A DNA stretch of 64,000 bases. Source: an uncultured Bacteroidales bacterium (GTDB taxonomy: Bacteria > Bacteroidota > Bacteroidia > Bacteroidales > UBA10428). Positions 14,902 to 60,202 of the stretch are shown here, in pieces. The stretch's first letter is position 1. Every line of letters begins with the position of its first letter. The notes beneath the pieces were generated by a model. It had not been told where the DNA came from. It saw only the letters and a program-made list of their open reading frames with translations, and made no database searches. Made by a program: the position numbers and the translations under genes. The DNA is taken from contig CAWEGX010000003.1 of the NCBI GenBank assembly GCA_963808745.1, positions 466,197-530,196 of the forward strand. The letters are read 5' to 3'.

Positions 14902-14975
14902 TAGCGAGATCGGGAATTGAACCCGAGACCTCATGATTATGAATCATGCGCTCTAACCATCTGAGCTACCTCGCC
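14902..14975 (-). tRNA. tRNA with CAU anticodon (elongator Met; lysidine-modified Ile2 not excluded)
   Basis: The reverse complement 'GGCGAGGTAGCTCAGATGGTTAGAGCGCATGATTCATAATCATGAGGTCTCGGGTTCAATTCCCGATCTCGCTA' folds as a cloverleaf. It has a 7-bp acceptor stem (two G-U pairs), a GCTC/GAGC D-stem, a CATGA/TCATG anticodon stem with loop TTCATAA, and a TCGGG/CCCGA T-stem. CCA is not encoded. Confidence 0.9.
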
Positions 14976-17270: not shown

Positions 17271-17460
17271 GCTAAAGGCTAAAGGCTGTTAGGCTGAAGA
17301 CTGTCAGGAATGCCTCTTCGTTGCTTGCAGTCGTTAAATCCCGGGTACTATATTCAGAATTCGGCGTTCGGTGTTCTCCCGATAAATCGGGACAGGCTTT
17401 GTTCGATATTATTTGTGATGACACAATAACACTGAACAAGGAACACCGAATTTCGAATTA
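17268..17460. repeat. Intergenic repeat mosaic A
   Basis: 'taggctaaaggctaaaggctgttaggctgaagactg' starts at the TAG stop. It is followed by a 'gcagtcgt' unit, a small hairpin 'cccgataaatcggg' and a long-range inverted repeat 'ttcggtgttc' (17367) / 'gaacaccgaa' (17441). Confidence 0.85.
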
Positions 17461-26769: not shown

Positions 26770-26875
26770 TTAATTGCTTTCTGATATGGTTACCACCGAA
26801 AGGTACAATGGTTACATCATTTTTCCAGAAATATTTTAGGGAGATGTTATGATGGCGTTATGGGGAGGATGGGAA

Positions 26876-27078
26876 GGCTGTTAGGCTACTAGGCTGCTAG
26901 GCTGCTAGGCTTCTAGGCTACTAGGTACTAGGCTACTTGGCTACCAGGCCTCTAAGCTACCACGGAAAAAGTCTTCGAAGTTCGAAGTTCGATGAATACT
27001 GAAATTTCTTAGCGGAATTCACGCCATTCACCATTCACCATTCACTTTTTCGACTGCAAAACTGCACGACTGCAGAAC
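26876..27078. repeat. Intergenic repeat mosaic C
   Basis: About 10 units of 'ctaggctN' (26876-26961), then 'ttcgaagttcgaagttcga' (26974-26992), 'ccattcaccattcaccattcac' (27024-27045) and 'cgactgcaaaactgcacgactgcagaac'. Confidence 0.9.
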
Positions 27079-27081
27079 TAA

Positions 27082-28242: not shown

Positions 28243-28285
28243 GAAATATTTTATAATTAGGCCATTAGGTTATTAAACTTCTTTT

Positions 28286-28406
28286 TACAATACCATATGC
28301 GCTCCGCGCAATCGTAAATCGTAAATCGTAAATCGTAAATTCCTACCGACGGCAAATCCCTACAGGATTTTCCTGCTCGTCCCTAGTCCCCAGTCCCTAG
28401 TCCCTT
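28286..28406. repeat. Intergenic repeat mosaic E
   Basis: 'tacaataccatatgcgctccgcgc', then 4x 'aatcgta' (28310-28340), the module 'tcctaccgacggcaaatccctacaggattttcc', and 'gtccctagtccccagtccctagtccct' (28379-28406). Confidence 0.9.
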
Positions 28407-28408
28407 CT

Positions 28409-31052
28409 TTACATTCCCAGCCAAAAACTCATCTTTACCATAAATACGTTAGTCGGTGCTCCTCCAAAAAGGTCACCCAGGTTATCACTTAGCGAGGAAT
28501 AATAAATATTGTCACGGTTATGCTGATTGTTCTCCCACACCAGGTAAATTGTTGAACCCGGGCGGTATTCCCATCGTGCCACAAGATTTGACCGGAATTC
28601 CCTGAAACTGAAATCCGGATTGTTGAATGAATAGGTGTCTGGTCCGTCATTCACCTGATAGGAATTCGTGGACTCGTCGAAGCTGATTTCAGATTCCGTA
28701 AAAGAATGATACCGGTCATTTATGTCATCTGCATTGGCATCGAGGGTTTTCTTGAAATCATCGTATATACCGGTTGAAATAAAGGGACTCCCATAATACT
28801 GAATGGAGATATCCGGCGTGATATTATAATTAAGGCGCAAGGTGACGCTATAGGTTTGCTGTTTGATATGTGCCAGAATGTATCGCATATCGGTACTCGT
28901 CTGTTTCTGAGTCACATAAATGAAATTGTCGATATTGTGATCATAGGCCATTTGGCCGGTGATATAAAAATGATTTCCAAGTCTGAAACTGAGTGATGGT
29001 TTTATCACATATCGGCGGGATACACCATCCGTGCTCACGGAACTTATATTATTCAATCCGAATATTACACGATCTGATTTATTTGTATTAAACGAGATGA
29101 TGTTATCCCAGTAAGGTGAAAGACGAAAAGCCGGTCCTCCGCGCAGCAGGCGGGTGGACAATTCTGCAAATGTATATGATTCGGTCATGGAAAGATCCCA
29201 CCGGTTGGTGAACTGTGCTGTAAATGCCGCGTTTACATCATTGTGGGTGCTCACTCCGCCGTAGTTCCAGGCATTCATCTGTCCAAGGGTAAGGGTATAA
29301 TTTCGTAATATGCCGCGAGGTTCGGTCTGGCGGATGCCCAGTTTGGTGAGATTCTGGATAAGATCAGCCATCAGCAGGTAGCCAACATCGTTCATGTCAA
29401 AGCCGGGTGACCACCAGCTTACCTTTTCAGAAAAAATAAAGCGCTTGTTACCAAGCCGGCCTGCACTCAGATAACCGCCGGTACCCGAAAGTGACCTTCG
29501 GCTGCTGTCAACACCCAGGTAACCTGAAGCATCCGGTCGCTGGTAATAGTGCAGGGGATTACGCTGAAGTGACCACTATGGCTTCTTCCTTTCCATTAAT
29601 ATAGCTCATAATACCCTTAAAATCAAGAAAATATTCGCGGTCTTTTGAATATTGAAGCAGGTCGATGCCGGCAGTATAGGCATTCTTATTGAGGTATTCC
29701 AGGTGGGGAACGTCGGAAAAACGGTTGGTGGAGGTAAACATGGTACCAAACTGGGTATTGCCCTTGTTGGCAATTTTCTGAACGCGGGCTACCAGGAAAT
29801 TGGTGAGGGGTTCAACTACGGGATTGGTCTCCACCCCGTCCGTTGTAACTTTTGCCGTTTCTTTCTGCGTGGTGCTTTGCAGGATACCCACGGATATCCC
29901 GTTACGGGTTGTTCCTGTCAGCTTGATTGCATTGATGATGTTGGTGAATTCAGGTTCTTTTGAAAAAGAGGTTACATTGTCCACTTCAGGCGAATAGGAG
30001 GGAGCATGCCCGATCCGGCGGGAATAGAACATCATGTTATTGTCGGGTGAAAAATCAAAAATATGTTTTCCTTCCAGGAAAAAGGGCCTTTTCTCTTCGT
30101 AAAAAGTCTCAAATGCGGTAAGGTTCATGACGGAAGGATCCGCCTCGATCTGTCCGAAATCCGGATTTATGGTGACATCCATTGTAAAATCACCGACACC
30201 TATTTTGCTGTCAATACCGGCATTCCCATTCCACCTGACTCCATTGGAATAAGGGCTGCCCTCGATCTGGGGTTCCATGGTCATCTTGGCGGCTACATAG
30301 GGAAGAAACTCAATGAGCCTTGGTTTTTGTATGCCCTGCAGCCCGTACATCGTGCCGAATGAATAAACATGGCCGCTGTTTTTGCGGGGAATAAGGCTCC
30401 ATTGGTCCACCTCCTGAAGTCGGCGGACTATGCGGCGCACATGCAATCCCCATACCATCCCGCTGTCGCTTTGATTATAACGCAGCTGGTTAAGCGGGAT
30501 CCTGAATTCGGCGATCCAGGAGGAATCATTCACAGATGTTTTTCCTTCCCAGACTGCGTTCCAGTTGAGGTTAACCGACAGGTTATCGGTGACGATGAGA
30601 TCGGTCTTGTTGCCACCCGCGTTGATATTGAATTCTGCTGCTGCCCGGCTGTCGTGATAAGAGTCAAAGGCAACACTGATGAGATCACCGATGGAGTTGT
30701 CATCGCGGTTTCCCACGAAGCGGTTTATCTTATCAGGTTCAGGATCCCAGGCGCGAAGGGCAAAATAGATATTTTTATCATCGAACAGTATCTTGATCTT
30801 TGTCGGGTAGGTGGGCTGTGCCCGTTCAACCGGTGTATTCTGCAGAAATTTCTGTGACCAGTTGCCTTCATTCTTCCAGCAGTCATCATCGAGTTTGCCA
30901 TCAATGACCGGGGGCTTTCCCTGTAATTTAACCGTATGATAGGACCGTTTGTAAGCCTGGTCAAAGGGAATGAGCGTATCGGCGCTTTGCGCCAGGGAAG
31001 GGGGAGTGGTTAGTGAAAGCAGCAGGAACAATATAAATACCAATCTCATCAT
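28409..31052 (-). CDS. CBM9-like + DUF5916 outer-membrane protein (~880 aa), one frameshift (~29565)
   Basis: The N-terminus has a signal peptide and 'IDGKLDDDCWKNEGNWSQKFLQNTPVERAQPTYPTKIKILFDDKNIYFALRAWD'. The 29396-29560 gap translates in the frame of ORF 28409..29395 ('LQRNPLHYYQRPDASGYLGVDSS...FDMNDVGYLLMADL'). It ends 'VFMVKMSFWLGM'. Confidence 0.7.
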
Positions 31053-31150: not shown

Positions 31151-31317
31151 CGGTTCTGAGTAGTTTTGCAATTGGTTTGTAGAGACAAGGCAATGCCTTG
31201 TCTGTACGATTTCATCCAATATTGAAGTCAAGAAGTCGTGCAGTCTTCGAACCAGGGAGGATTACCGATTACTGATTACCGATTACCGATTACCGATTAC
31301 CGATTACCGATTACCGA
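31151..31317. repeat. Intergenic repeat mosaic F
   Basis: 'cggttctgagtagttttgcaattgg', the 40-nt hairpin element (31178-31217), 'gaagtcaagaagtcgtgcagtcttcgaa', and about 8 units of 'gattacc' (31260-31317). Confidence 0.9.
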
Positions 31318-32515
31318 ATATGACGTTAAAAATTCTATCCATTGCACTCTTCGAGGAGATCAGTTCGTCAATTTTTCCGTAATTTCCATTGGCAGCCCAC
31401 ACCAGGGTTGTTTTACTATCTTCAAAATAAATCATCGTGGCAAAATACCCGATGGCATCTCCGCTATGATGGTAGGCATTTCCATATGGTGTTTCAATTT
31501 TAAATATACCAAGTCCATATGACAGGGGATAAAATGCAGGATCCGGATTTTTGGGTAACTGCCAGGTAAGCATTTCCTGCAGCGATTTTTCAGATATGAG
31601 TTGGCCATTGAAAAGGGCTCTCATAAATACGGAGAGATCGTGCACATTGGAGATCAGGCCTCCATCGGCCGTATAATAATCCCATCCGCTGTAGTTTGTA
31701 CTTTCCATCAGCTGTAATTTGCTGTAAAAATCTATATATCCCCGGATTATGTTTTCAGGCACCGGATCTTCTGCAGCAAATTGTGTGGATTCAAGATGAA
31801 GAGGTTCAAATATCCTGGTTTTGAATGCCTGGTAGAAGGGCTCACCCGTGATTTTTTCAATGATCATTCCCAGCAACACATAATTGGTATTTGAATAATC
31901 CACATCCTGACCACATTCAAAATTTGCCGGCTTATTATATGCATACTCAAGTAAATCAAATGGATGCCATACCCGGGTGAGATCATTGACTGAGGCTGTC
32001 TGGAATTTAAGGCTCCGGATGTAGTTATAAATTCCGCTTGAATGATTTAAAAGTTGCCGAATGGTGCTCTGCCTGGCATTGGATAGCTTATCCAGGATAT
32101 CGCCGGGAAGGTATTTCTCAGTTTTATCATCCAGGGATAATCGTCCTTCTTCTGCGAGCATCAGGATTGTAACTGCGGTAAAAGTCTTTACAGTACTTCC
32201 GGTGCGTGTTATATTACAGGGTTTCAGTTCCACCTTGCCTGCAATATCAGCCATTCCTGAAGCACCCAGCCATTCACCGTCTTCAGGGGAATAAACCGAT
32301 AACATAATTCCAGGTACACCGGCTGATGTAATATCATCCAGCAAGGCCTGGTATTTTGAATTCAAGGTACTTTGTTTGCTTGAATCTGCAAAGTTGAATG
32401 AGCAGGCATAAACTGCCGGTGAACCCGGCTCGCTTTTAGTGCATCCAAAGACGGCCAGGAATAACAGGATGAGGTAATATGCCTTTCCGCTATTCATTGT
32501 TTTTGTGATTTTCAA
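31304..32515 (-). CDS. Serine hydrolase, beta-lactamase/transpeptidase-like family (lipoprotein)
   Basis: 'GSTVKTFTAVTILML' carries the S-x-x-K motif. 'YSNTNYVLLG' is a Y-x-N-like motif. 'LLFLAVFGC' is a lipobox. The start may be the Met at 32497. Confidence 0.8.
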   Translation of the reverse strand: MKITKTMNSGKAYYLILLFLAVFGCTKSEPGSPAVYACSFNFADSSKQSTLNSKYQALLDDITSAGVPGIMLSVYSPEDGEWLGASGMADIAGKVELKPCNITRTGSTVKTFTAVTILMLAEEGRLSLDDKTEKYLPGDILDKLSNARQSTIRQLLNHSSGIYNYIRSLKFQTASVNDLTRVWHPFDLLEYAYNKPANFECGQDVDYSNTNYVLLGMIIEKITGEPFYQAFKTRIFEPLHLESTQFAAEDPVPENIIRGYIDFYSKLQLMESTNYSGWDYYTADGGLISNVHDLSVFMRALFNGQLISEKSLQEMLTWQLPKNPDPAFYPLSYGLGIFKIETPYGNAYHHSGDAIGYFATMIYFEDSKTTLVWAANGNYGKIDELISSKSAMDRIFNVIFGNR

Positions 32516-33089: not shown

Positions 33090-33147
33090 CTTTAAAATGA
33101 TTGATTACTGGTTCTAAGTTGCATTTGCCAGATCAAATATAATAAAA

Positions 33148-33378
33148 GTTCTGCGGTTATGCAGTTGGAGTAATGGTGAATGGTGAATGGTGAATGCTAT
33201 AGATACTTACAAATGATTCAAAATTTGTAGTATGGTTTGGCTCTTGAGTCATTCATTCTTGCAAATTTTCAAATCATCAAATCACCTAATCCCTAAAGTC
33301 CAAAGCCTTCGTACAATTTAAATAAATATCCTTAACTTTACATAACGAGTTACTTCCATTCACCATTCACCATTCACC
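33148..33378. repeat. Intergenic repeat mosaic G
   Basis: 'gttctgcggttatgcagttgg', then 'aatggtgaatggtgaatggtgaatg' (33172-33196) and its inverted partner 'ccattcaccattcaccattcacc' (33356-33378), which ends 8 nt before the rsgA ATG. Confidence 0.9.
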
Positions 33379-33386
33379 GTTTTAAA

Positions 33387-34451
33387 ATGAACACACTCGA
33401 ACAATACGGCTGGAACGATTTTTTCAGCCAATACAATACACTGAACGGGAATGAGGACTTTGTTGCAGGCAGGGTTGTTTCAGTTAAAGGTTTTAAATAT
33501 CATCTGATACTGGAATCGGGAGAAACTGAAGCAGAGTTATCCGGAAAATTGTTATTCGGTACCGATCACGAGCTTCTCCCGAAAGTCGGTGACTGGGTGT
33601 TCTGCCTGAAATACGACACAATGGGATATATCACCGAGGTATTTCCCAGGTTAAACAGGCTGGCCAGAAAAAATCCGGATAAAACCTCGGAAAAGCAAAT
33701 TCTTGCAGCCAATATTGACTATGCCTTAATTGTGCAGGGACTCGACCGGGAATTTAACCTGATGCGTCTTGACCGGTATCTTGTGCAGATCATAGCCAAC
33801 GGAATCTCTCCCATTATCGTGCTAAACAAGGCCGACCTGATAAGCGACCGGGAGGTATACCGCAACGAGGTCCTGAGACTTGGAAAAGAATGTCCTGTTT
33901 ATTTCTGCAGCACTTACGACGGTTCAGGCCTGGAAGAATTGCTCACCCAGGCCCTGCTTCCGGCAAAAACCTCTATTATGGTTGGTTCATCAGGGGTTGG
34001 CAAAAGTTCGCTGCTGAATTCATTCAGGAAATCAGCAGCCAGAGAAACCGGTCCGTTAAGTTATTCCACCAATAAGGGAATGCATGTGACGACAACACGT
34101 GATCTGTTCAGGCTCCCCAATGGCAGCCTGATCATTGACACACCCGGCATGAGGGAATTTGGAATCGCCCTGGAAGACGGACTGCAGACAGACGGGCTGT
34201 TTCCTTCCATTGATGAATTTTCGCGCAAATGCAGGTATGCCGATTGCAGCCATACCAATGAGGAAGGATGTGCAGTAATTGAGGCTTTTGAAAACCAGCT
34301 CCTTGATCCGGCGGTATATAATAGTTACATCAAACTGATGAAGGAGCAAAGGCGATTTGAGATCCGGGCAGGTGAAAGTAAAAGGCTGGGAAAGCAGTTC
34401 GGCAAAATGATCCGCGAGGCAAAGGATTTCCGGAACAGATATAAGTATTAG
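33387..34451 (+). CDS. rsgA: Ribosome small-subunit-dependent GTPase A
   Basis: Circularly permuted GTPase motifs 'VLNKADL' and 'VGSSGVGKSSLLNS'. The C-terminal zinc motif is 'CRYADCSHTNEEGCAV'. Confidence 0.9.
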   Translation: MNTLEQYGWNDFFSQYNTLNGNEDFVAGRVVSVKGFKYHLILESGETEAELSGKLLFGTDHELLPKVGDWVFCLKYDTMGYITEVFPRLNRLARKNPDKTSEKQILAANIDYALIVQGLDREFNLMRLDRYLVQIIANGISPIIVLNKADLISDREVYRNEVLRLGKECPVYFCSTYDGSGLEELLTQALLPAKTSIMVGSSGVGKSSLLNSFRKSAARETGPLSYSTNKGMHVTTTRDLFRLPNGSLIIDTPGMREFGIALEDGLQTDGLFPSIDEFSRKCRYADCSHTNEEGCAVIEAFENQLLDPAVYNSYIKLMKEQRRFEIRAGESKRLGKQFGKMIREAKDFRNRYKY

Positions 34452-34696
34452 TTCTGCGGTTCTGCGGTTCTGTGATTGGTCTGTAGAGACAAGGCATTGC
34501 CTTGTCTGTACGATTTCATCCAATCATTGCAGTCTTGCAGTCGTGTAGTCAATGAAAGTCCCCTTCGGAGGGGGCAGGGGGAGGATTGACGTAATCCACC
34601 CCCTACCCCCGCCAGCGGCGGAAATCATCCCTTGAAGCCTAACAGCCTATAGCACATATAGCAGCCTAATCCCCTAAGCCTCCAGCCTATCAGCCT
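34449..34696. repeat. Intergenic repeat mosaic H
   Basis: 'tagttctgcggttctgcggttctgtg', the 40-nt hairpin element (34482-34521), 'attgcagtcttgcagtcgtgtagtc', a GC-rich palindromic island (34558-34612), and reverse TAGGCT-type units (34634-34696) overlapping the regulator's stop. Confidence 0.9.
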
Positions 34697-37600
34697 TTCT
34701 TAATCAGAATCAGCTCTTTCCATCCTTCAGCCGAGTGAAGGTATTTTTTTCTTTGTTGCATTACTTCCCTGACCTTATTTCTAAAGGTCCAGCAGGTTTC
34801 TTTCCGAAGTGAAATGAGATGTGACAGTTCGTCAACGGTTAAATTTCTTCCGCTACTGACAAGGTACAGAATGTAAAATGCCTTCGTGATGGGAAATTTT
34901 ATGCGGTAAAAAATAGTGTTGCTTGTCAGGGGTTCGCGATATCCGCATTGCTTGCACCGGCGCAGAAATGTCCCCATTAATACTGTATAGCCTGTATGGT
35001 GACAATTTTTGCAAACGAAGGGAAGGGGGCTTTTAAGTTCCCGAAGCAAGGCAAGACATGATTCATCATCGGGATAAATCTCACGGAATTCTTCATACGT
35101 AACACGTTTTTGCATGACCCTCGCTTTTGAAAGTTCCTGCACGTTTTGTGTAAGATCCTCATTTTTACGCTGAAGAAGGTAATTCATCCTGCGGATCTCT
35201 CCGCCCTGTCTTTCTATTTCGTCTTTCTGAAATTCAAGGTGTATATTCTTCCGGATGATTTCAGTATTTGCATTTTGCAGGAAAGTCGCCTGCTCCAGTA
35301 TCTGCTCTTTCTGCTGAACCACCTCATCAGTTCGCTGCCTGACTTTTGTTTCGAGAATGATGTTTTGGCTTTTGATGCTGCTTACGCGAATCGCATGCAG
35401 GGTAAGAGCTGAGCCAAGAATAAAGCTTATTAGAAGGAGCCTGAACCACAAGGTTCTCCAAAAGGGCGGTTTTATGAGTATTTTAAGGATTGTGCCTTCG
35501 GTGTTCCAAATTCCATCGTTGTTTGATGCCTGAACCCTGAAAATATAATCTCCGGGTGGAAGATTGGTATAGCTGGCAGACCTGCGGTCTTCATTGTCAA
35601 TCCATGCCTTATCAAAACCTTCGAGAAAATATTTATACCGGCATTTTGTGGAGGATGAAAAATTCAATGCCGTGAATTCAAAGGTCACAGCATTCTGTCT
35701 GTAATTAAGGATGATGGACGAGGTTTCCAAAAGACTTTTTTGAAGCGGTGATTTTTCACCAATTAAAACCGGCTTGTTTAGGATCTTTAAACCGGTAAGA
35801 TAAATGGCAGGAAGATAAGAATTGTCATGAATGCTATCGGGATAAAAAATGTTGAGGCCATTGATGCCACCGAAAATAATTTCTCCGGTGGACATTTTCG
35901 CAAAGGCCCTTGGATTGAATTGATTTCCCTGCAATCCATCTGATTTATCGTATAGCTTAATGGTTTCTTTTTTCGGATTAAGTACGGCAATACCAAGGTA
36001 GGTGCTGATCCATAAGTTGCCATGATGGTCTTCTATTATTCCACAGATCACATTACTGGGCAAACCGTTCCTTGTTGTATATATTTTAAAGTTACCTGTT
36101 TCGGGATTGAAACGGTTCAGGCCGCCATAGGTCCCTATCCAGAGATCTCTGGAAGTAGTCTCTACAATGCAGGTTATCTCATTGCTGCTGATTGAATTTG
36201 GTCTGGCCGGATCATGCAGATACCTGATAAAGGTCCGGTTTCCGTCAATGAACCGGTTTAATCCTTCATAGGTGCCCACCCAAAGAGTCCCGTTTCCATC
36301 CTGCAAAATATCCGTAACATAGTTATTACTCAGGCTGTTTGAATCCAATTCCTCTTTTACGAAATGTACAATCTGGTTTTTTCCCTGATTGAATTGGTTT
36401 AATCCGCCACCATTGGTTCCTATCCATAATAAACCCTCTCTGTCTTCATAAATGCTGAAAACCGAGTTATTTGAAAGGCTGTTTGAATGGGCAGGTTTAT
36501 GACGGTAATGAATAAACTGCTTGCGTGCAGGATCCCATCGATCGATACCATTGTCCATATATCCTACCCAGATATTACCCTGATGGTCACGACACAGCGC
36601 ACTGACAACATGATGACCCGGAGAGGCACTATTGCCCGGATCGGGCATAAATACCCTGAATTTACCTGATTTTCTGTTCATTACGTTAATACCACCCTCA
36701 TCTGTGCCGATCCAGATATCCTGTCCATCAGGCAGAATGGAAAGAACAGAACTTTTACTGAGACTGTTCGGATTTAATGCATTGGCACGGATAATCTCGA
36801 TCTTTTTCCGGCTGTTGTCAGAAAAATTCAATCCGCCACCAATCGTCCCCACCCATAGATTTTTCTGTTTATCTGTAAATACCGACATCACGGAATTCTT
36901 GCTAAGCGTATTGTAGTCCGTTTCCAGATGCCTGTAATGAGTGAAAAACTGTGTATGAATATTGAACAATGATAATCCCCCGCCCAGGGTTCCAATCCAA
37001 AGATGCAATTTGTCCGCTTTCTGAATTGTTTTTACCCGCTTTTGAGAAAGAGCCCCCGGTTTAAATTCCTCTACGAGATAGGGGATTTGTACAAAGCGGT
37101 TCTCCCGGATGATATACCTGATCATCCCATGTTCTTCCGTTCCCAGCCATAAATCATTTCCCAGCAGGCATAATGCATTTACTTCATTATCAGGTAATTG
37201 TGAGTTATTTATATTAAAACTGGTAAACTGCCGGTGAACGGGATCAAATTTAACCAGGCCCTGTGACCCGGTACCGATCCACAGAATGCCGGCACTATCC
37301 TCAACAATTGAATTGACGTAATTATCACTAATACTGTTCGGATCATTTGGATTATTGGAATAAAGAAGCCGGGTGTTATCCTCTGTATTGAAGCGGATCA
37401 GTCCTTCGTTTGTTCCTATCCATATCTTTCCGGAATGGTCCTCCATCATGGTACGGATTACATTCAGTTTCAGTCTTAGATCGACAAACGTAAAACTCTC
37501 GTTTTCAGAATTATAGCGATAAAGTCCACCCCCACGGGTTCCGATCCAAAGTACACCTCTGGAATCAGAAAACAGCACCGATATTGTATTGTTCTGCAGG

Positions 37601-37842
37601 GCTCCGGGAATGGGACGGGACAGTTTAAAAACCTGGAAGAATTTCCCGTCAAAACGGTTTAGTCCGTCCGATGTTCCGATCCAGATATAGCCATATCGAT
37701 CCTGATTAATGGCAAAGATTGTATTATCTGAAATTCCCTGGTCAGTATTGTATGTCTCAAACTGGAGGAATCGCTGCGCGTAAATATGAAAAAAGGGAAT
37801 CTGAATGAGTAACCAGAAAAGAAAGGGCTTTTTCATGCGCAT
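34690..37842 (-). CDS. Transmembrane one-component regulator: 14-blade beta-propeller + Y_Y_Y sensor, TM, coiled coil, IS1595-type transposase zinc-ribbon/HTH domain
   Basis: There are 14 'W(I/V)GT..G(L/I)..(F/Y)' propeller blades, and the Y_Y_Y motif is 'YKYFLEGFDKAWID...YTNLPPGDYIFRV'. 'WFRLLLISFILGSALTLHAI' is the TM segment, followed by a ~90-aa heptad-rich linker. The last 138 aa, 'EEFREIYPDDESCLALLRELKSPLPFVCKNCHHTGY...RRCKQCGYREPLTSNTIFYRIKFPITKAFYILYLVSS...TCWTFRNKVREVM', match the N-terminal DNA-binding region of IS1595 transposases. There is no DDE domain, kinase or receiver. Confidence 0.75.
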   Translation of the reverse strand: MRMKKPFLFWLLIQIPFFHIYAQRFLQFETYNTDQGISDNTIFAINQDRYGYIWIGTSDGLNRFDGKFFQVFKLSRPIPGALQNNTISVLFSDSRGVLWIGTRGGGLYRYNSENESFTFVDLRLKLNVIRTMMEDHSGKIWIGTNEGLIRFNTEDNTRLLYSNNPNDPNSISDNYVNSIVEDSAGILWIGTGSQGLVKFDPVHRQFTSFNINNSQLPDNEVNALCLLGNDLWLGTEEHGMIRYIIRENRFVQIPYLVEEFKPGALSQKRVKTIQKADKLHLWIGTLGGGLSLFNIHTQFFTHYRHLETDYNTLSKNSVMSVFTDKQKNLWVGTIGGGLNFSDNSRKKIEIIRANALNPNSLSKSSVLSILPDGQDIWIGTDEGGINVMNRKSGKFRVFMPDPGNSASPGHHVVSALCRDHQGNIWVGYMDNGIDRWDPARKQFIHYRHKPAHSNSLSNNSVFSIYEDREGLLWIGTNGGGLNQFNQGKNQIVHFVKEELDSNSLSNNYVTDILQDGNGTLWVGTYEGLNRFIDGNRTFIRYLHDPARPNSISSNEITCIVETTSRDLWIGTYGGLNRFNPETGNFKIYTTRNGLPSNVICGIIEDHHGNLWISTYLGIAVLNPKKETIKLYDKSDGLQGNQFNPRAFAKMSTGEIIFGGINGLNIFYPDSIHDNSYLPAIYLTGLKILNKPVLIGEKSPLQKSLLETSSIILNYRQNAVTFEFTALNFSSSTKCRYKYFLEGFDKAWIDNEDRRSASYTNLPPGDYIFRVQASNNDGIWNTEGTILKILIKPPFWRTLWFRLLLISFILGSALTLHAIRVSSIKSQNIILETKVRQRTDEVVQQKEQILEQATFLQNANTEIIRKNIHLEFQKDEIERQGGEIRRMNYLLQRKNEDLTQNVQELSKARVMQKRVTYEEFREIYPDDESCLALLRELKSPLPFVCKNCHHTGYTVLMGTFLRRCKQCGYREPLTSNTIFYRIKFPITKAFYILYLVSSGRNLTVDELSHLISLRKETCWTFRNKVREVMQQRKKYLHSAEGWKELILIKKG

Positions 37843-51004: not shown

Positions 51005-51082
51005 AATCTTATGTTTTGTTTTTATGGGGGGAACGAAAGAAATAAATCAGTGCCTGCGGGGCAGGCACTGATTTTAAGCTGA

Positions 51083-52990: not shown

Positions 52991-53024
52991 AGCTATGAGT
53001 TTTTAATTAAGGAATTGATTGGAT

Positions 53025-53032
53025 CAAATATA
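53025..53032 (-). promoter_or_regulatory. Candidate Bacteroidota -7 promoter box (TAnnTTTG) for the PUL operon
   Basis: The minus strand reads 'TATATTTG' about 35 nt upstream of the 52990 ATG, in an AT-rich spacer. This is a motif match only. Confidence 0.25.
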
Positions 53033-53240
53033 TATATCCGATATTTATTTTGCAATAGCTAATAAATTGATAATCAATAAGTAAAAGAATATTTATTACG
53101 GATTAATGCCAATTGACCAATAACTTCTTCACTATATTCCTAATGGTATTGAATTCATTTATTCCAAAATCATCCGGAAAAAAAATCCGCATGAATACCA
53201 GTGAAAAAAATAGTAATTTGTAATGATTTTAAATAGGGAG

Positions 53241-53558
53241 ATGGATACTGGATGCTGGATGCTGGATACTGGATGCTGGATGCTGGATACTGGATGCTGG
53301 ATACTGGATGCTGGATGCTGGATACTGGATGCTGGATACTGGATGCTGATGAGGAATTTTGAATTATGACATGTGGAATGGGACTGAAGACTGCACTACT
53401 GCAAGACTGCGTTTTTCATAATAAATATTGGAAATCGTACAGACAAGGCATTGCCTTGTCTCTACAACGTTTTTCCCTTTACCGAATACCGATCACTGTC
53501 ACCGATACCGATCACCGATCACCGATTACCGAATACCGATTACTGATTACCGATTACC
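53241..53558. repeat. Intergenic repeat mosaic I
   Basis: About 15 units of 'tggatRc' (53241-53351), 'ggactgaagactgcactactgcaagactgcg', the hairpin element in reverse orientation (53431-53466), and 'accgat'-type heptamers (53480-53558) running into the UDG-like gene. Confidence 0.9.
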
Positions 53559-54236
53559 TAAAACCCTCACATACCTGTCGATATACTGCTCCTTAAACCT
53601 CGCCTTATATTGCATGATATACCTGGGATGTTCGAGGGCGACTATTTCATCGAAAAAGTGATGCTCCTTGTTTAATTTCCTGAGAAAGGTTTCATTTTTA
53701 CCAGTTCCAAGACAGTAACAAACAGATGTATCAACGCCAAAACCGATCTGCTTTTTCAATGTGTCAAGGATGAATGGATAAGCTATCCGCTCCAGTTCAC
53801 TGGTGTCATAGTAATTGAAGTTTACAGGCTTCTTATTTTTCCCTTCCTTTGTAAATCCAAGCGGACATATCGCACTGAGAAAATATTGACCATAAAATTC
53901 CTTCACTCCTCCAAATGCCTCTATCATTTCATAAATAAATGCAGAAGACGGCTCATGGGTTCGAAATCCTGTGAAAGGTATGCCGCAATTCTCCGTCAGT
54001 CGTTTGGTGTCTGTAAAGGGTATGCCAGTGGAACCGGCACCAAACCGGCCCGGATTAATACCAAGGATAAGCTTTCTTTCCATGTGGTCAGAAAAGAACT
54101 TTGTATAGAATTCTGCTGAAAGCTTATTCACTAATGGATTTTCACGAAATGGATTCATGATCCTGACGCCTTCCGGTAAGGTTCCTTTGAACTCCAGGTT
54201 TCTGTAGAATTCAATCACTTTCCGGGCAAATGTCAT
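53547..54236 (-). CDS. Uracil-DNA glycosylase superfamily protein (DUF4918-like)
   Basis: 'LILGINPGRFGAGSTGIPFTD' resembles the UDG-superfamily GxNPG active-site loop. 229 aa. Confidence 0.5.
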   Translation of the reverse strand: MTFARKVIEFYRNLEFKGTLPEGVRIMNPFRENPLVNKLSAEFYTKFFSDHMERKLILGINPGRFGAGSTGIPFTDTKRLTENCGIPFTGFRTHEPSSAFIYEMIEAFGGVKEFYGQYFLSAICPLGFTKEGKNKKPVNFNYYDTSELERIAYPFILDTLKKQIGFGVDTSVCYCLGTGKNETFLRKLNKEHHFFDEIVALEHPRYIMQYKARFKEQYIDRYVRVLGNR

Positions 54237-54379: not shown

Positions 54380-55648
54380 ATGACTATTCAATTTTCATCA
54401 ATATTGGTTAAGATAGTTGTGGTCCTGTTGCTCATCCTGCCAACAATTGATATGAACATCATGGGACAGGATAAACCCGTAAACTATGATGAATCAGCCG
54501 TTCCGGCATATACCCTGCCTGATCCCCTGCGTTTTTCCAACGGGGACGAGGTTAAGGATACAGTGGAGTGGATGAACAAGCGAAGACCTGAAATACTGTC
54601 CCTGTTTGAAACCGAAATGTTTGGCAAAACGCCTGACAGGAAAATCAAGGCCAGGTATACAATTGTATCAGCAGATACAATGGCACTGAATGGAATGGCC
54701 ATCCGAAAACAGGTGAGAATTGAATTTCCATCCGAACCCGGTGCTCCGTCCCTGATGCTGCTGATCTTTCTGCCCAAATCCCAGAAGCCCGTGCCCGTAT
54801 TTCTTGGGCTCAATTTTGATGGGAATCATACTATTGTTGATGATACGGGTATTATAGTGTCAGAGGCCTGGCAGGCATCCGCCCATGCCCGCGGAGAAGA
54901 TTCGCTCAGCTGGCCGGTCAAAAATATTGTTGGTCACGGATTTGCGCTGGCCACAATTTACTATGGGGAAATTGTTGAAGATGAAAATAACGGATTCAGA
55001 AATGGAATTCAACCTGTATTTTATTCTCCGGGACAGACATCGCCAAAGCCCGACGAATGGGGCGCCATCGGTGCATGGGCATGGGGTTTGAGCCGTGCTA
55101 TGGACTATCTTGAGAATGATAAGCTGTTAGATCCAAAAAAGGTGGTTGTTTTCGGACATTCGCGGTTGGGCAAGACCGCCTTATGGGCCGGTGCTCAGGA
55201 CAGCCGGTTTGCCCTTATAATATCGAACAATTCGGGATGCGGCGGTGCTGCTTTATCTAAACGAATCTTCGGCGAAACTGTGGGATCTATCAATGCTATG
55301 TTTCCCCATTGGTTTTGCGGAAACTTCAAAAAGTATAACGATAAGGAAATGGATCTGCCGATGGATCAGCACATGCTCATTGCCCTCATCGCACCAAGGC
55401 CTGTTTATGTTACCAGCGCACAGGATGACCAATGGGCCGATCCGAAAGGAGAATTCCTGGGAGTAGTGAATGCAAATCCGGTTTACCGTCTTTTTGGCAA
55501 ACAAGGTTTACCCGTGTCGGTAATGCCTCCGTTGAACAGCCCGGTTATGGGTGACCTCGGTTATCATATCCGAACCGGCCCGCATGCATTAACATACTAT
55601 GACTGGGACAGATTTATGGAGTTTGCACGGAAACATTTTAAAAACTAG
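54380..55648 (+). CDS. CE15-like glucuronoyl esterase / acetylxylan-esterase-like serine hydrolase
   Basis: Signal anchor, then 'YDESAVPAYTLPDPLRFSNGDEV...WMNKRRPEILSLFETEMFG'. The nucleophile motif is 'GHSRLGKTALWAGAQD'. Confidence 0.65.
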   Translation: MTIQFSSILVKIVVVLLLILPTIDMNIMGQDKPVNYDESAVPAYTLPDPLRFSNGDEVKDTVEWMNKRRPEILSLFETEMFGKTPDRKIKARYTIVSADTMALNGMAIRKQVRIEFPSEPGAPSLMLLIFLPKSQKPVPVFLGLNFDGNHTIVDDTGIIVSEAWQASAHARGEDSLSWPVKNIVGHGFALATIYYGEIVEDENNGFRNGIQPVFYSPGQTSPKPDEWGAIGAWAWGLSRAMDYLENDKLLDPKKVVVFGHSRLGKTALWAGAQDSRFALIISNNSGCGGAALSKRIFGETVGSINAMFPHWFCGNFKKYNDKEMDLPMDQHMLIALIAPRPVYVTSAQDDQWADPKGEFLGVVNANPVYRLFGKQGLPVSVMPPLNSPVMGDLGYHIRTGPHALTYYDWDRFMEFARKHFKN

Positions 55649-55869
55649 GCTGTTAGGTTATTAGGCTACTAGACTACTAGGCTACTAGGCTATTAGGCTG
55701 TAGCCTATAGGCTGTTAGGCTGTTAGGCTGTAGGCCAATAGGGGCTTAGGGGCTTAGGGGTTTAGGTTTAGGCTTCATCAGCATATTATCACATTAGCAC
55801 ATTAGCACATTTATTTCCCCTTTTAGTTTTTAACTATCAACTACAATTCAACTATCAACTAACAACTAA
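55646..55869. repeat. Intergenic repeat mosaic J
   Basis: 'taggctgt/taggttat/taggctac...' octamers start at the TAG stop. They are followed by 'cttaggggcttaggggtttaggtttagg', 'cacattagcacattagcacat' (55790-55810) and 'aactatcaactacaattcaactatcaactaacaactaa' (55832-55869), which ends 8 nt before the next ATG. Confidence 0.9.
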
Positions 55870-55877
55870 TAAAAATC

Positions 55878-56579
55878 ATGACTACAAAGAGAATAGGACT
55901 GGTAGGCGGACTTGGTCCTGAAGCCACCCTGGAATACTACAGGGGAATTATAAATGCTTTCAAGAGCGACAATACATCTCTTAATTACCCCGAGATCATT
56001 ATATATAGTATGAACCTGTCGGAACTCATCGGTATGATGAACCGGAAAGAATATGACAGGGTTATTGTGTACCTTCTTGGTGCAATTGATTCACTGAAAA
56101 AAGCCGGGGCTGATTTTGCCGCCATGGGTGCAAACTCTCCCCACCTCGTTTTTGATGAGCTTGCACAGGTATCGCCCCTGCCATTGATCAGCATTGTTGA
56201 GTCAGCCTATGACGAAGTTCAACGGCTCGGTTTACAGAAGCCGGGACTGATAGGAACAGGTTTCACCATGTCAGGAACTTTTTACCAGGATGTATTTGGC
56301 AGAAGGGAGATTGAGGTAATCGTCCCGGAGGAACCGGATATGAAGATCATCAATGAAAAATTATTTTCTGAAATTGAATTGGGAATTTTCAGGAATGAAA
56401 CCCGGGATTTGCTCATCGCAATCATCGAAAAGATGGTCCATACCCATCGAATTGATGGCCTTATCCTTGGATGTACCGAATTTCCGCTGATCCTTACGGA
56501 AAATGAATATGCTGGAATTCCCATGTTGAATACCACGCAATTGCATATTGATGCTATTGTTAAATACTGCCGCAGGTAA
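55878..56579 (+). CDS. Aspartate/glutamate racemase family protein
   Basis: 'IGLVGGLGPEATLEYY' and 'LILGCTEFPLIL' are the two catalytic-Cys/Thr regions typical of the family. Confidence 0.8.
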   Translation: MTTKRIGLVGGLGPEATLEYYRGIINAFKSDNTSLNYPEIIIYSMNLSELIGMMNRKEYDRVIVYLLGAIDSLKKAGADFAAMGANSPHLVFDELAQVSPLPLISIVESAYDEVQRLGLQKPGLIGTGFTMSGTFYQDVFGRREIEVIVPEEPDMKIINEKLFSEIELGIFRNETRDLLIAIIEKMVHTHRIDGLILGCTEFPLILTENEYAGIPMLNTTQLHIDAIVKYCRR

Positions 56580-58947: not shown

Positions 58948-59146
58948 GGACGAGGGACTGGGGACGAGGGACGAGGAAGAAAGTTCTGCAGTTCTGCAGT
59001 TATGCAGTTGCAGTTTTGCTGCTGCGTCAGCACATTTCATACATTAGCATTAGCACATTAGCACATTAGCACATTAGCACTTAAAACCTCAAACCTCAAA
59101 TCTCAAATTCATAATTCATCATTTATAATTCATAATTCATAATTCC
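58945..59146. repeat. Intergenic repeat mosaic K (five array families in ~200 nt)
   Basis: 'tagggacgagggactggggacgagggacgagg', 'gttctgcagttctgcagttatgcagttgcagtt', 'cacattag' x~5 (59031-59080), 'aacctcaaacctcaaatctcaaa', and 'ttcataattcatcatttataattcataattcataattcc'. Confidence 0.9.
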
Positions 59147-59186
59147 TATTACTACTTTTACAGGCACAATCCTAATTAAGTCACCA

Positions 59187-60059: not shown

Positions 60060-60202
60060 TTGTCGGTAGAGGAAGAATTTACGATTTACGATTTACGATT
60101 GGAAGGCATCGACTCGTCACCGACCAATACCGAAGCTCCCTGAAAGCTAAACCCTAAACCCCTAAACCTGAACCCTAAGCCCCTAAGCCCCTAAGCCCCT
60201 AA
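59998..60202. repeat. Intergenic repeat mosaic L
   Basis: 'tagggacaagggacaagggactagggactggg', the module 'ggaaaatcccggtttaaggattgattgtcggtagagga', 'atttacgatttacgatttacgatt' (60077-60100), and 'aaaccctaaacccctaaacctgaaccctaagcccctaagcccctaagcccctaac' (60148-60202). Confidence 0.9.

Follow-up and report, generated by a model that had tools for sequence, protein, structure and literature searches.

A GTAG-footed hairpin in three intergenic copies of a Bacteroidales genome stretch and its probable identity as a REP of RAYT subclass 2.4

The hairpin element and its setting

A stretch of 64,000 nt from an uncultured Bacteroidales bacterium (UBA10428; contig CAWEGX010000003.1, positions 466,197-530,196), referred to below as the window, contains three copies of a short hairpin-forming element that is in all likelihood a repetitive extragenic palindrome (REP). 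With up to 3 mismatches allowed, the 29-nt core of the element, GTAGAGACAAGGCA[A/T]TGCCTTGTCTGTAC, has three matches in the window, at the places where a sequence-only reading of the same DNA had put it, and the number expected from 100 dinucleotide-preserving shuffles is 0.00. A half-site search of the window at up to 2 mismatches found no fourth or partial copy. Other double-foot variants, with GTAGAGAC...GTCTCTAC around any inner stem, were not found in the window either. The coordinates of the copies and of the other features are collected in Table 1.

The hairpin has a 9-bp perfect stem, a G.G mismatch, three more pairs and a 3-nt loop. The mismatch is the only one in the palindrome and comes from the two feet, one strand reading GTAG and the other GTAC; the near-perfect palindrome with one mismatch described earlier is thus correct. 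Folded as DNA with the foot first, the three copies reach -11.2 to -15.1 kcal/mol (z -5.0 to -7.1), and none of 200 shuffles folded as well. The opposite strand of copy 1 gives -9.1 kcal/mol (z -3.6). As RNA the hairpins reach -16.5 to -24.9 kcal/mol (z -4.0 to -6.6). An extended unit with an outer helix is common to copies 1 and 2, and copy 3 has TTGTAGAG...GTACGATTTCCAATATT in common with these.

All three copies are intergenic and lie 31-96 nt 3' of a stop codon. Copy 1 is 96 nt past the stop of one minus-strand open reading frame (ORF) and 126 nt 5' of the start of another. Copy 2 is 31 nt past the rsgA stop in a gap between convergent genes, and copy 3 is 81 nt past the stop of a gene identified as UDG by its orthology to a locus of a relative (L204). 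Relative to the upstream gene, copy 1 is antisense and copies 2 and 3 are sense. A T-run follows none of the three; the next bases are GATTTCATCC or GATTTCCAAT. An intrinsic terminator was considered and rejected, the hairpin being present, the T-run absent and all three sites missing from the terminator scan, in agreement with the earlier remark that the element is not a canonical terminator. In an Rfam scan of the window at gathering thresholds the sole match was a tRNA, and the hairpins matched no family. A spurious 155-aa ORF has its start inside REP copy 2; it opens with MDEIVQTRQCLVST and contains the peptide ...VQTRQCLVST....

Table 1. Hairpin copies, tandem arrays, genes and other features of the window
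Feature	Position	Strand	Sequence or remark
Element copy 1, 40 nt	31178-31217	+	TGTAGAGACAAGGCAATGCCTTGTCTGTACGATTTCATCC
Element copy 2	34482-34521	+	as copy 1, T at the loop base
Element copy 3	53431-53466	-	GTAGAGACAAGGCAATGCCTTGTCTGTACGATTTCC
REP copy 1	31179-31207	+	GTAGAGACAAGGCAATGCCTTGTCTGTAC; GTAG foot, 13-pair stem with one G.G mismatch, 3-nt loop
REP copy 2	34483-34511	+	GTAGAGACAAGGCATTGCCTTGTCTGTAC
REP copy 3	53437-53465	-	GTAGAGACAAGGCAATGCCTTGTCTGTAC on the minus strand
Extended unit, copy 1	31171-31224	+	ATTGGTYTGTAGAG...GTACGATTTCATCCAATMATTG; outer ATTGG/CCAAT pairing
Extended unit, copy 2	34475-34529	+	outer helix GATTGG/CCAATC; DNA fold -15.1 kcal/mol, z -7.1
Extended unit, copy 3	53424-53467	-	tail GATTTCCAATATT
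ORF, start near copy 1	29559-31052	-	
ORF, stop near copy 1	31304-32515	-	
rsgA	33387-34451	+	
UDG	53547-54236	-	
Array near copy 1	31260-31317		GATTACC, 8.3 copies; context
Array adjoining copy 2	34451-34472		GTTCTGCG; context, not REP
Array adjoining copy 2	34527-34550		TTGCAGTC; context
Array near copy 3	53382-53410		GACTGCAA; context
Array near copy 3	53479-53558		TTACCGA, 11.7 copies; context
Array stretches	26770-27081, 28243-28408, 31260-31317, 33090-33386, 34452-34689		
Array stretches, further	52991-53558, 55649-55877, 58948-59186, 60060-60202		
Spurious ORF	34056-34523	-	155 aa
Block beside copy 2	34556-34625		CCCCTTCGGAGGGG hairpin; palindrome GGGGGCAGGGGGAGGATTGACGTAATCCACCCCCTACCCCC
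Block of variable presence	34.5-53.5 kb		19 kb
Y_Y_Y/Reg_prop regulator	34690-37842	-	1050 aa
GCE_fung	54380-55648		
Asp_Glu_race	55878-56579		
Second conserved noncoding element	17355-17450		small hairpin TCCCGATAAATCGGGA between GGTGTTC and GAACACC repeats
Canonical hairpin between A and T runs	51044-51074		AAATCAGTGCCTGCGGGGCAGGCACTGATTT
tRNA	14902-14975		sole Rfam match

The footed palindrome in other phyla

The exact 19-nt core GACAAGGCANTGCCTTGTC, with 18 fixed bases, was sought in one genome per prokaryotic species, 596 Gb in all. It is present in at least 119 genome stretches of several phyla; our own estimate of the chance number is about 9. A left foot GTA[GC]A, a right foot T[CG]TAC or both accompany 101 of the 128 copies among the matches listed, a foot that was absent from the search pattern. 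With its foot variants the REP pattern is GTA[GC]AGACAAGGCANTGCCTTGTCT[CG]TAC. Among the listed matches the flanks are unrelated from locus to locus and the foot is kept regardless. Thus the conserved and dispersed unit is the footed palindrome of about 29 bp itself. When the window was compared with the at least 119 loci, nothing but repeats aligned. Of the 128 copies among the matches listed, 108 are not within an ORF of at least 150 aa, and several genomes have 6-12 loci each in the same list. A few in-gene core matches, for example in Methylobacter, look like chance.

Copies with two feet number 43 among the matches listed, GTAC variants counted in. They were found in Bacteroidota (27), Patescibacteria (5), Ignavibacteria (4), Thiocystis (2, including the isolate T. 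minor DSM 178) and Brocadiaceae (2), counted in the same list. The cyanobacterial core matches have feet of other kinds. Carriage by phages or plasmids as the main route of spread was unsupported, the REP having turned up on no more than 3 contigs of viruses and on 2 plasmids (Spirosoma, Emticicia).

GTAC in place of GTAG or CTAC at one foot was also seen at unrelated loci (L122, L126, L159, L181, L012, L017, L067, L072, L097, L100 and L105), including ones with different inner stems. The one-base variant of the window is therefore a common form and no private mutation. Two further arrangements were observed. At L043 (3590-3670) the REPs are nested, a full copy lying in the loop of another copy, and at L041, L081, L088, L101 and L119 half-copies lie a few bases from a full copy.

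RAYT genes that carry the hairpin

All ORFs within 3 kb of REP copies, at loci taken from the listed matches, were compared with each other. One relevant recurrent family was found near the copies among these loci, at four loci in four taxa: Ferruginibacter (L001), Bacteroidales (L052), Cyclobacteriaceae (L089) and Hydrogenedentes (L113). The family resembles the tyrosine transposases associated with REPs (RAYTs). It scores 34.3 and 28.8 bits against Pfam Y1_Tnp (cut-off 23), and 52.8 and 38.7 bits against NCBIfam REP_Tyr_transpos, under the cut-off of 80. Its sole relative in the PDB is E. coli TnpA_REP (4ER8, E 2.7e-6). The four ORFs have the HuH motifs NHMH, NHIH, NHLH and DHIH, the W motif WQ and the Y motifs YIANNP, YIINNP, YIIDNP and YIKANP. 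The consensus given for subclass 2.4 in the text of Quentin et al. (2018, PMC6006769) is NH[IFV]H for HuH, WQ for the W motif and YIxNNP for the Y motif. Judged by these motifs the four ORFs appear close to TnpA_Y1 subclass 2.4, which is group 4 of Bertels.

The hairpin lies in frame within these genes, directly 3' of the HuH motif, and is read as VETRRCLVST or VETRQCLVST. L001 has, in addition to its in-gene VETRRCLVST, a second hairpin copy 44 bp past the stop codon, and L052 has three hairpin copies. RAYT genes with the same REP inside or flanking were found at L001, L052, L089, L208 and L209. In the isolate Flavobacterium cheonanense JCM 17069 the RAYT gene (L208, 10001-10579) has an in-gene REP and a flanking copy, and a dispersed copy lies on another contig (L023), with the same inner stem. 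5' of the RAYT gene of F. cheonanense (L208, 9902-9937) a one-foot REP is followed by T8 and looks like an intrinsic terminator of the preceding gene.

A profile of the four proteins found at least 7998 relatives, many of which are named 'REP element-mobilizing transposase RayT'. The peptide ETR.CLVS stands at the hairpin site in 70 of the best 120 family members, a figure that is biased, as the query profile included the hairpin peptide. The other reading frame, RDKA.PCL, was seen in 4 of the best 120. Compensated variants among these 120 are VETGHCPVST (with an AGGG/CCCT stem), VETRHALSL (with one base less in the loop) and VGTGHRPVQ, and H and Q alternate at the loop codon. This alternation fits a free loop base. 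It points to the nucleic-acid hairpin, and not the peptide, as what is under constraint. The carrier RAYT proteins are about 47-68% identical to the L001 protein and the hairpin peptide is unchanged; thus the hairpin is more conserved than the protein that carries it.

The bias of the first count was removed with an independent sample of 80 metagenomic RAYT loci, chosen by peptide patterns away from the hairpin. In 53 of the 80 loci the gene has an in-gene footed hairpin with a variable inner stem between GTAGAGAC and GTCTCTAC, or one of closely similar form. Inner stems were counted as shared when their central 14 nt had no more than 2 mismatches. By this measure the inner stem of the in-gene hairpin recurs in the flanking ones at 22 of the 28 loci with footed hairpins in both places; 1000 permutations of the loci gave 4.0 on average and 9 at most. 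Thus the RAYT gene and its flanking REPs co-vary, which is the relation of a REPtron.

Gain and loss in close relatives

Relatives were taken at 85-93% identity of RsgA, and five of their loci were read (L200-L204); the nearest named relative, a 'Bacteroidales bacterium' metagenome-assembled genome (MAG), has an RsgA of 66% identity. In the window rsgA is followed by an array, the REP and a second array. At the same place L200 (RsgA 86%) has TTTACGA / AATCGTA arrays only. L202 (89%) has a short tract with few 7-8-nt units, and L203 and L204 (87% each) have large arrays of other units; the hairpin is absent from all three. L201 (93%) has one REP in reverse orientation. The site orthologous to copy 2 is therefore without a REP in L200, L202, L203 and L204, though the flanks align. 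Copy 3 has an orthologous copy in L201 with one mismatch. Around copy 1 the window and L201 align in their flanks at about 95% identity. L201 lacks the REP unit of about 55 nt in its entirety and has an unbroken (GTNNTGCA)n array in its place; this comparison shows no clean insertion ends and no target-site duplication. Presence and absence at orthologous sites indicate that the REP was gained or lost on a short time scale.

The genes next to the copies were also compared. In L201, L204 and the P0124 contig rsgA is directly followed by UDG, GCE_fung and Asp_Glu_race. Thus some relatives have, and others lack, a 19-kb block of the window with the Y_Y_Y regulator, a cellulase-like gene, GH3, rhamnosidase, GH43 and further genes. 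On either side of the block in the window stand REP copy 2 on the plus strand and copy 3 on the minus strand, with their tails inward. The regulator in it has counterparts in L200 and L202 with a weak C-terminal match to Zn_ribbon_IS1595.

Short tandem arrays around the copies

The three copies lie among arrays of 7-8-nt units. The kinds of flanking array described by the sequence-only reading were found, except that a lone GTTCTG unit and no array precedes copy 1. Arrays of this kind are in 12 of the 40 intergenic gaps of the window, and the three REPs are all in such gaps (hypergeometric p about 0.02, own calculation); the other 9 array-bearing gaps are without the hairpin. The units include TAGGCTRY, CCATTCA, AATCGTA, GTCCCTA, GATTACC and GTTCTGCG, and further GCAGTCKT, TGGATGC, CATTAGCA, CTAAACCC and AGGGACR. 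They are completely different between the window and the relatives L200-L204, at 86-93% RsgA identity. Cyanobacterial STRR heptamers are another kind of intergenic heptamer repeat.

A common order of modules was found in 4-5 related Bacteroidales MAGs, among them JTS-AC371, MFD04716.bin.2.165, MFD05442.bin.1.81 and MFD01299.bin.2.127. It runs from GGTAATC, GGGACRA or GTTCTGC arrays through the hairpin and a GATTTCCAAC tail to GCAGTCKT arrays. The similarity extends over 77-127 nt and the neighbouring genes are unrelated. Across phyla the association is not seen. REPs are near arrays of 5-12-nt units in 17.6% of cases against 21.6% of other noncoding positions (p 0.39; at least 119 listed loci), and the REP loci of Thiocystis and Brocadiaceae are free of 7-8-nt arrays. 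A general link of REP and arrays was therefore rejected and kept only as a lineage-specific composite. The earlier statement that the element is always embedded in repeat mosaics holds for the window and a few related Bacteroidales MAGs but not generally among the listed loci, and it is further undercut by the orthologous sites of close relatives, which have arrays without a REP. The arrays are a habit of certain genomes, and the REP lands or survives in the same unconstrained intergenic DNA.

Within RAYT genes the situation is different. In-gene REPs abut tandem arrays in 11 of 57 cases, against 21 of 1420 control coding positions (1.5%; odds ratio 16, p 7e-9). The periods of these arrays are nearly all multiples of three. 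At L123 (10262-10343), L133 (4203-4250), L137 (2774-2826) and L139 (1139-1254) in-frame arrays with periods of 9-18 stop precisely where the foot of the in-gene REP lies. The abutment may perhaps reflect just an unconstrained linker.

Three other noncoding features of the window were observed. The block beside copy 2 contains a hairpin that resembles a terminator when read on the minus strand, and an imperfect palindrome rich in G; the distal portion of the block (...CCCCCGCCAGCGG...) shows partial conservation in L202. The second conserved noncoding element has a counterpart on an Ignavibacteriaceae MAG contig (L112, 1480-1571), with 86% identity over 93 nt and about 70 nt away from a REP copy. 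The hairpin between A and T runs is canonical and lies in the gap of two minus-strand genes. It shows that the genome uses ordinary terminators.

Identity of the element and comparison with known systems

The element is very probably a REP of the GTAG superfamily, of the 'double-foot' type of RAYT/TnpA_REP subclass 2.4 (group 4). It is an imperfect stem-loop palindrome of 29 bp, within the 20-40 bp of such elements, and all three copies begin with GTAG where GT[AG]G is expected 0-2 nt from the 5' stem base. The inner stem is AAGGCA-N-TGCCTT and the feet are GTAGAGAC and GTCTCTAC, one of them changed from CTAC to GTAC. There are 3 copies in the 64 kb of the window, all intergenic. Two related classes were tried and rejected. 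The copies are singletons with no full or half site nearby, unlike the doublets of bacterial interspersed mosaic elements (BIMEs) or REPINs, in which a short conserved spacer parts two inverted REPs; of the two names offered earlier, REP stands, on the GTAG foot, the hairpin and the RAYT genes elsewhere, and BIME does not. A miniature inverted-repeat transposable element, which would have terminal inverted repeats about an interior of roughly 100 bp or more and a target-site duplication, does not fit a shared unit of 29-55 nt that is itself one hairpin, and no target duplication is visible against L201.

According to the text of Quentin, Siguier, Chandler and Fichant (2018, PMC6006769), double-foot REPs together with in-frame REP insertion are a hallmark unique to subclass 2.4, which ranges over Cyanobacteria, Bacteroidetes and scattered phyla. 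[quoted passage not shown] They differ in that the window copies have GTAC for CTAC at the second foot and a lineage-specific tail, GATTTC(AT)CCAA, and the window, unlike a REPtron, is without a RAYT gene. The inner stem AAGGCA-N-TGCCTT and its exact conservation across phyla are not stated in the text of that paper.

The GTAG REPs defined by Di Nocera, De Gregorio and Rocco (2013, PMC3733652) are likewise GTAG-tagged palindromes of 20-40 bp, 3' of coding regions and mostly in unidirectional or convergent gaps, and some of their families are common to distant species. They were reported from Proteobacteria, Cyanobacteria, Chloroflexi and the PVC group, whereas the REPs reported from Bacteroidetes were of the CGTC kind only. 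Their GTAG is unpaired at one end, whereas the GTAG of the window pairs with the second foot, and most of the families occur as HH or TT dimers, unlike the singletons of the window. With the REPs and TnpA_REP of E. coli (group 2; 4ER8, PMC3479197) the system would have in common the HUH/Y1 enzyme logic and a GTAG tetranucleotide with a hairpin on single-stranded DNA. The RAYT subclass differs, as the score under the REP_Tyr_transpos cut-off indicates. E. coli REPs also have bulged stems and form BIMEs with conserved linkers, and tnpA_REP is without an in-gene REP, unlike here.

A mechanism can be proposed by analogy with work on E. coli TnpA_REP and IS200/IS605 (PMC3479197, PMC8266576, PMC6006769). 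A RAYT made elsewhere in the genome would bind the hairpin and its GTAG foot on single-stranded DNA, for example at a replication fork. It would cleave and rejoin the DNA at the foot, so that the unit is occasionally copied or removed. The RAYT gene carrying its own hairpin, gene and REP could move together in transfer between phyla, and a joint transfer of enzyme and site would explain the identical 29-mer in distant taxa. Binding and cleavage of a single-stranded hairpin by a RAYT have been demonstrated for E. coli TnpA_REP only (PMC3479197, PMC8266576).

Several points weigh against the identification. The sequence-only reading had suggested a search for a RAYT-like gene elsewhere in the genome; the identical hairpin is in or beside RAYT-like Y1 genes of other genomes, but no RAYT was found in the window, by tblastn or by a 120-sequence hidden Markov model against the six-frame translation (best E 0.046), nor at the 5 loci read in close relatives. 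Where a 3' foot C[TC]AC is expected the window copies have GTAC, so that each is, strictly speaking, a single-foot variant. At the site of copy 1 the REP unit takes the place of some of an octamer array, and loss, gain and array turnover are indistinguishable there. We know of no biochemical work on subclass 2.4 RAYTs and, to our knowledge, transposition of REPs driven by a RAYT has not been directly shown in vivo for any RAYT. The abundance of 16-mers round group 4 RAYTs is modest, about 14 per replicon (Bertels et al. 2017, PMC5581495).

Other explanations

The hairpin might be mainly an RNA element, a factor-independent terminator or a protector of mRNA 3' ends that is selected for this role and not spread by a transposase. 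Its place shortly past a stop codon in all three copies and its strong folding as RNA agree with this, as do the one-foot copy of F. cheonanense directly followed by T8 and the stabilisation of mRNA 3' ends by enterobacterial REPs (background in PMC3733652). However, a U-run is absent after all three window copies, their orientation to the upstream gene is mixed, and the window uses canonical A/T-run terminators such as the one at 51044-51074. An RNA origin would also leave unexplained a cross-phylum 29-mer with a fixed GTAGAGAC foot and its in-frame presence in RAYT genes, and is unlikely. An RNA role is compatible with a REP as a secondary role, not as the origin: to judge by its position 30-100 nt past a stop codon, the hairpin may plausibly serve in RNA, too, to stabilise 3' ends or as a weak terminator. 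A palindromic operator, at which a host transcription factor regulates the adjoining genes, would account for the near-perfect 29-bp palindrome and for copies 1 and 3 lying upstream of a co-directional gene. It is highly improbable, with copy 2 between convergent genes where there is no promoter to control, distances to the downstream starts as far apart as about 126 and 446 nt, adjoining genes that are functionally unrelated, and the identical site beside unrelated genes in many phyla.

Another conceivable reading is a BIME-like composite, in which hairpin, tail and flanking 7-8-nt arrays move or function as one unit and the hairpin is just one module, made by the process behind the arrays. 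The confinement of the three copies to array-bearing gaps, the module order common to 4-5 MAGs amid unrelated flanking genes, and the excess of arrays abutting in-gene hairpins speak for such a composite. It is nonetheless a quite unlikely reading, since the listed loci show no enrichment of REPs near arrays, the relatives have large arrays at orthologous sites with the hairpin absent, the REPs of Thiocystis and Brocadiaceae do without 7-8-nt arrays, and 9 other array-bearing gaps of the window have no hairpin. A REP of the subclass 2.4 type remains the preferred reading of the hairpin.

Significance

The feature is real and mostly ordinary, save for the identical sequence in several distant phyla. 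As the text of Quentin et al. (2018) reports GTAG REPs in Bacteroidetes for subclass 2.4, the hairpin belongs to a known kind; its novelty falls by this and the REP interpretation stands. Of some interest are the exact conservation of the inner stem across phyla and the unexplained array habit of the host lineage.

Two bolder ideas, which we put forward together and regard as improbable, concern these points. One is that the 29-mer, identical in at least 4 phyla while the carrier protein has drifted to about 50% identity, belongs to an unusually conserved DNA-protein recognition pair; if so, the pair moves by horizontal transfer. The other is that the REP and the hypervariable 7-8-nt arrays are two products of one machinery, in which the subclass 2.4 RAYT, or a factor transferred with it, would nick the hairpin foot and so seed local tandem duplication. 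Intergenic arrays of the heptamer TAACTGA are known from Beggiatoaceae, Thiocystis, Cyanobacteria and some Bacteroidetes, and are unexplained (MacGregor 2015, PMC4679880). The present arrays resemble them in tandem units of 7 nt (here 7-8 nt) that fill intergenic gaps and are hypervariable between close relatives, and differ in the units (GATTACC, GTTCTGCG, GCAGTCKT, TAGGCTRY, CCATTCA, AGGGACR). The odd set of taxa with the TAACTGA arrays overlaps that of subclass 2.4 RAYTs; no link to REPs or RAYTs was proposed in that paper. If true, the idea would provide a mechanism for these heptamer arrays and account for the arrays that abut the in-gene REP of RAYT genes.

For annotation, the hairpins in the window are to be recorded as repeats and not as genes, and the peptide that the hairpin encodes, VETR[HQ]CLVST in one frame and RDKA.PCLY in another, can serve as a flag for mis-called small ORFs in metagenomes. 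The analysis also yields a searchable REP, whose full 29 nt are common to Bacteroidota, Ignavibacteria, Patescibacteria, a purple sulfur bacterium and anammox Planctomycetota. The subclass 2.4 RAYTs are a good system for the co-evolution of REP and enzyme and for their movement between phyla.

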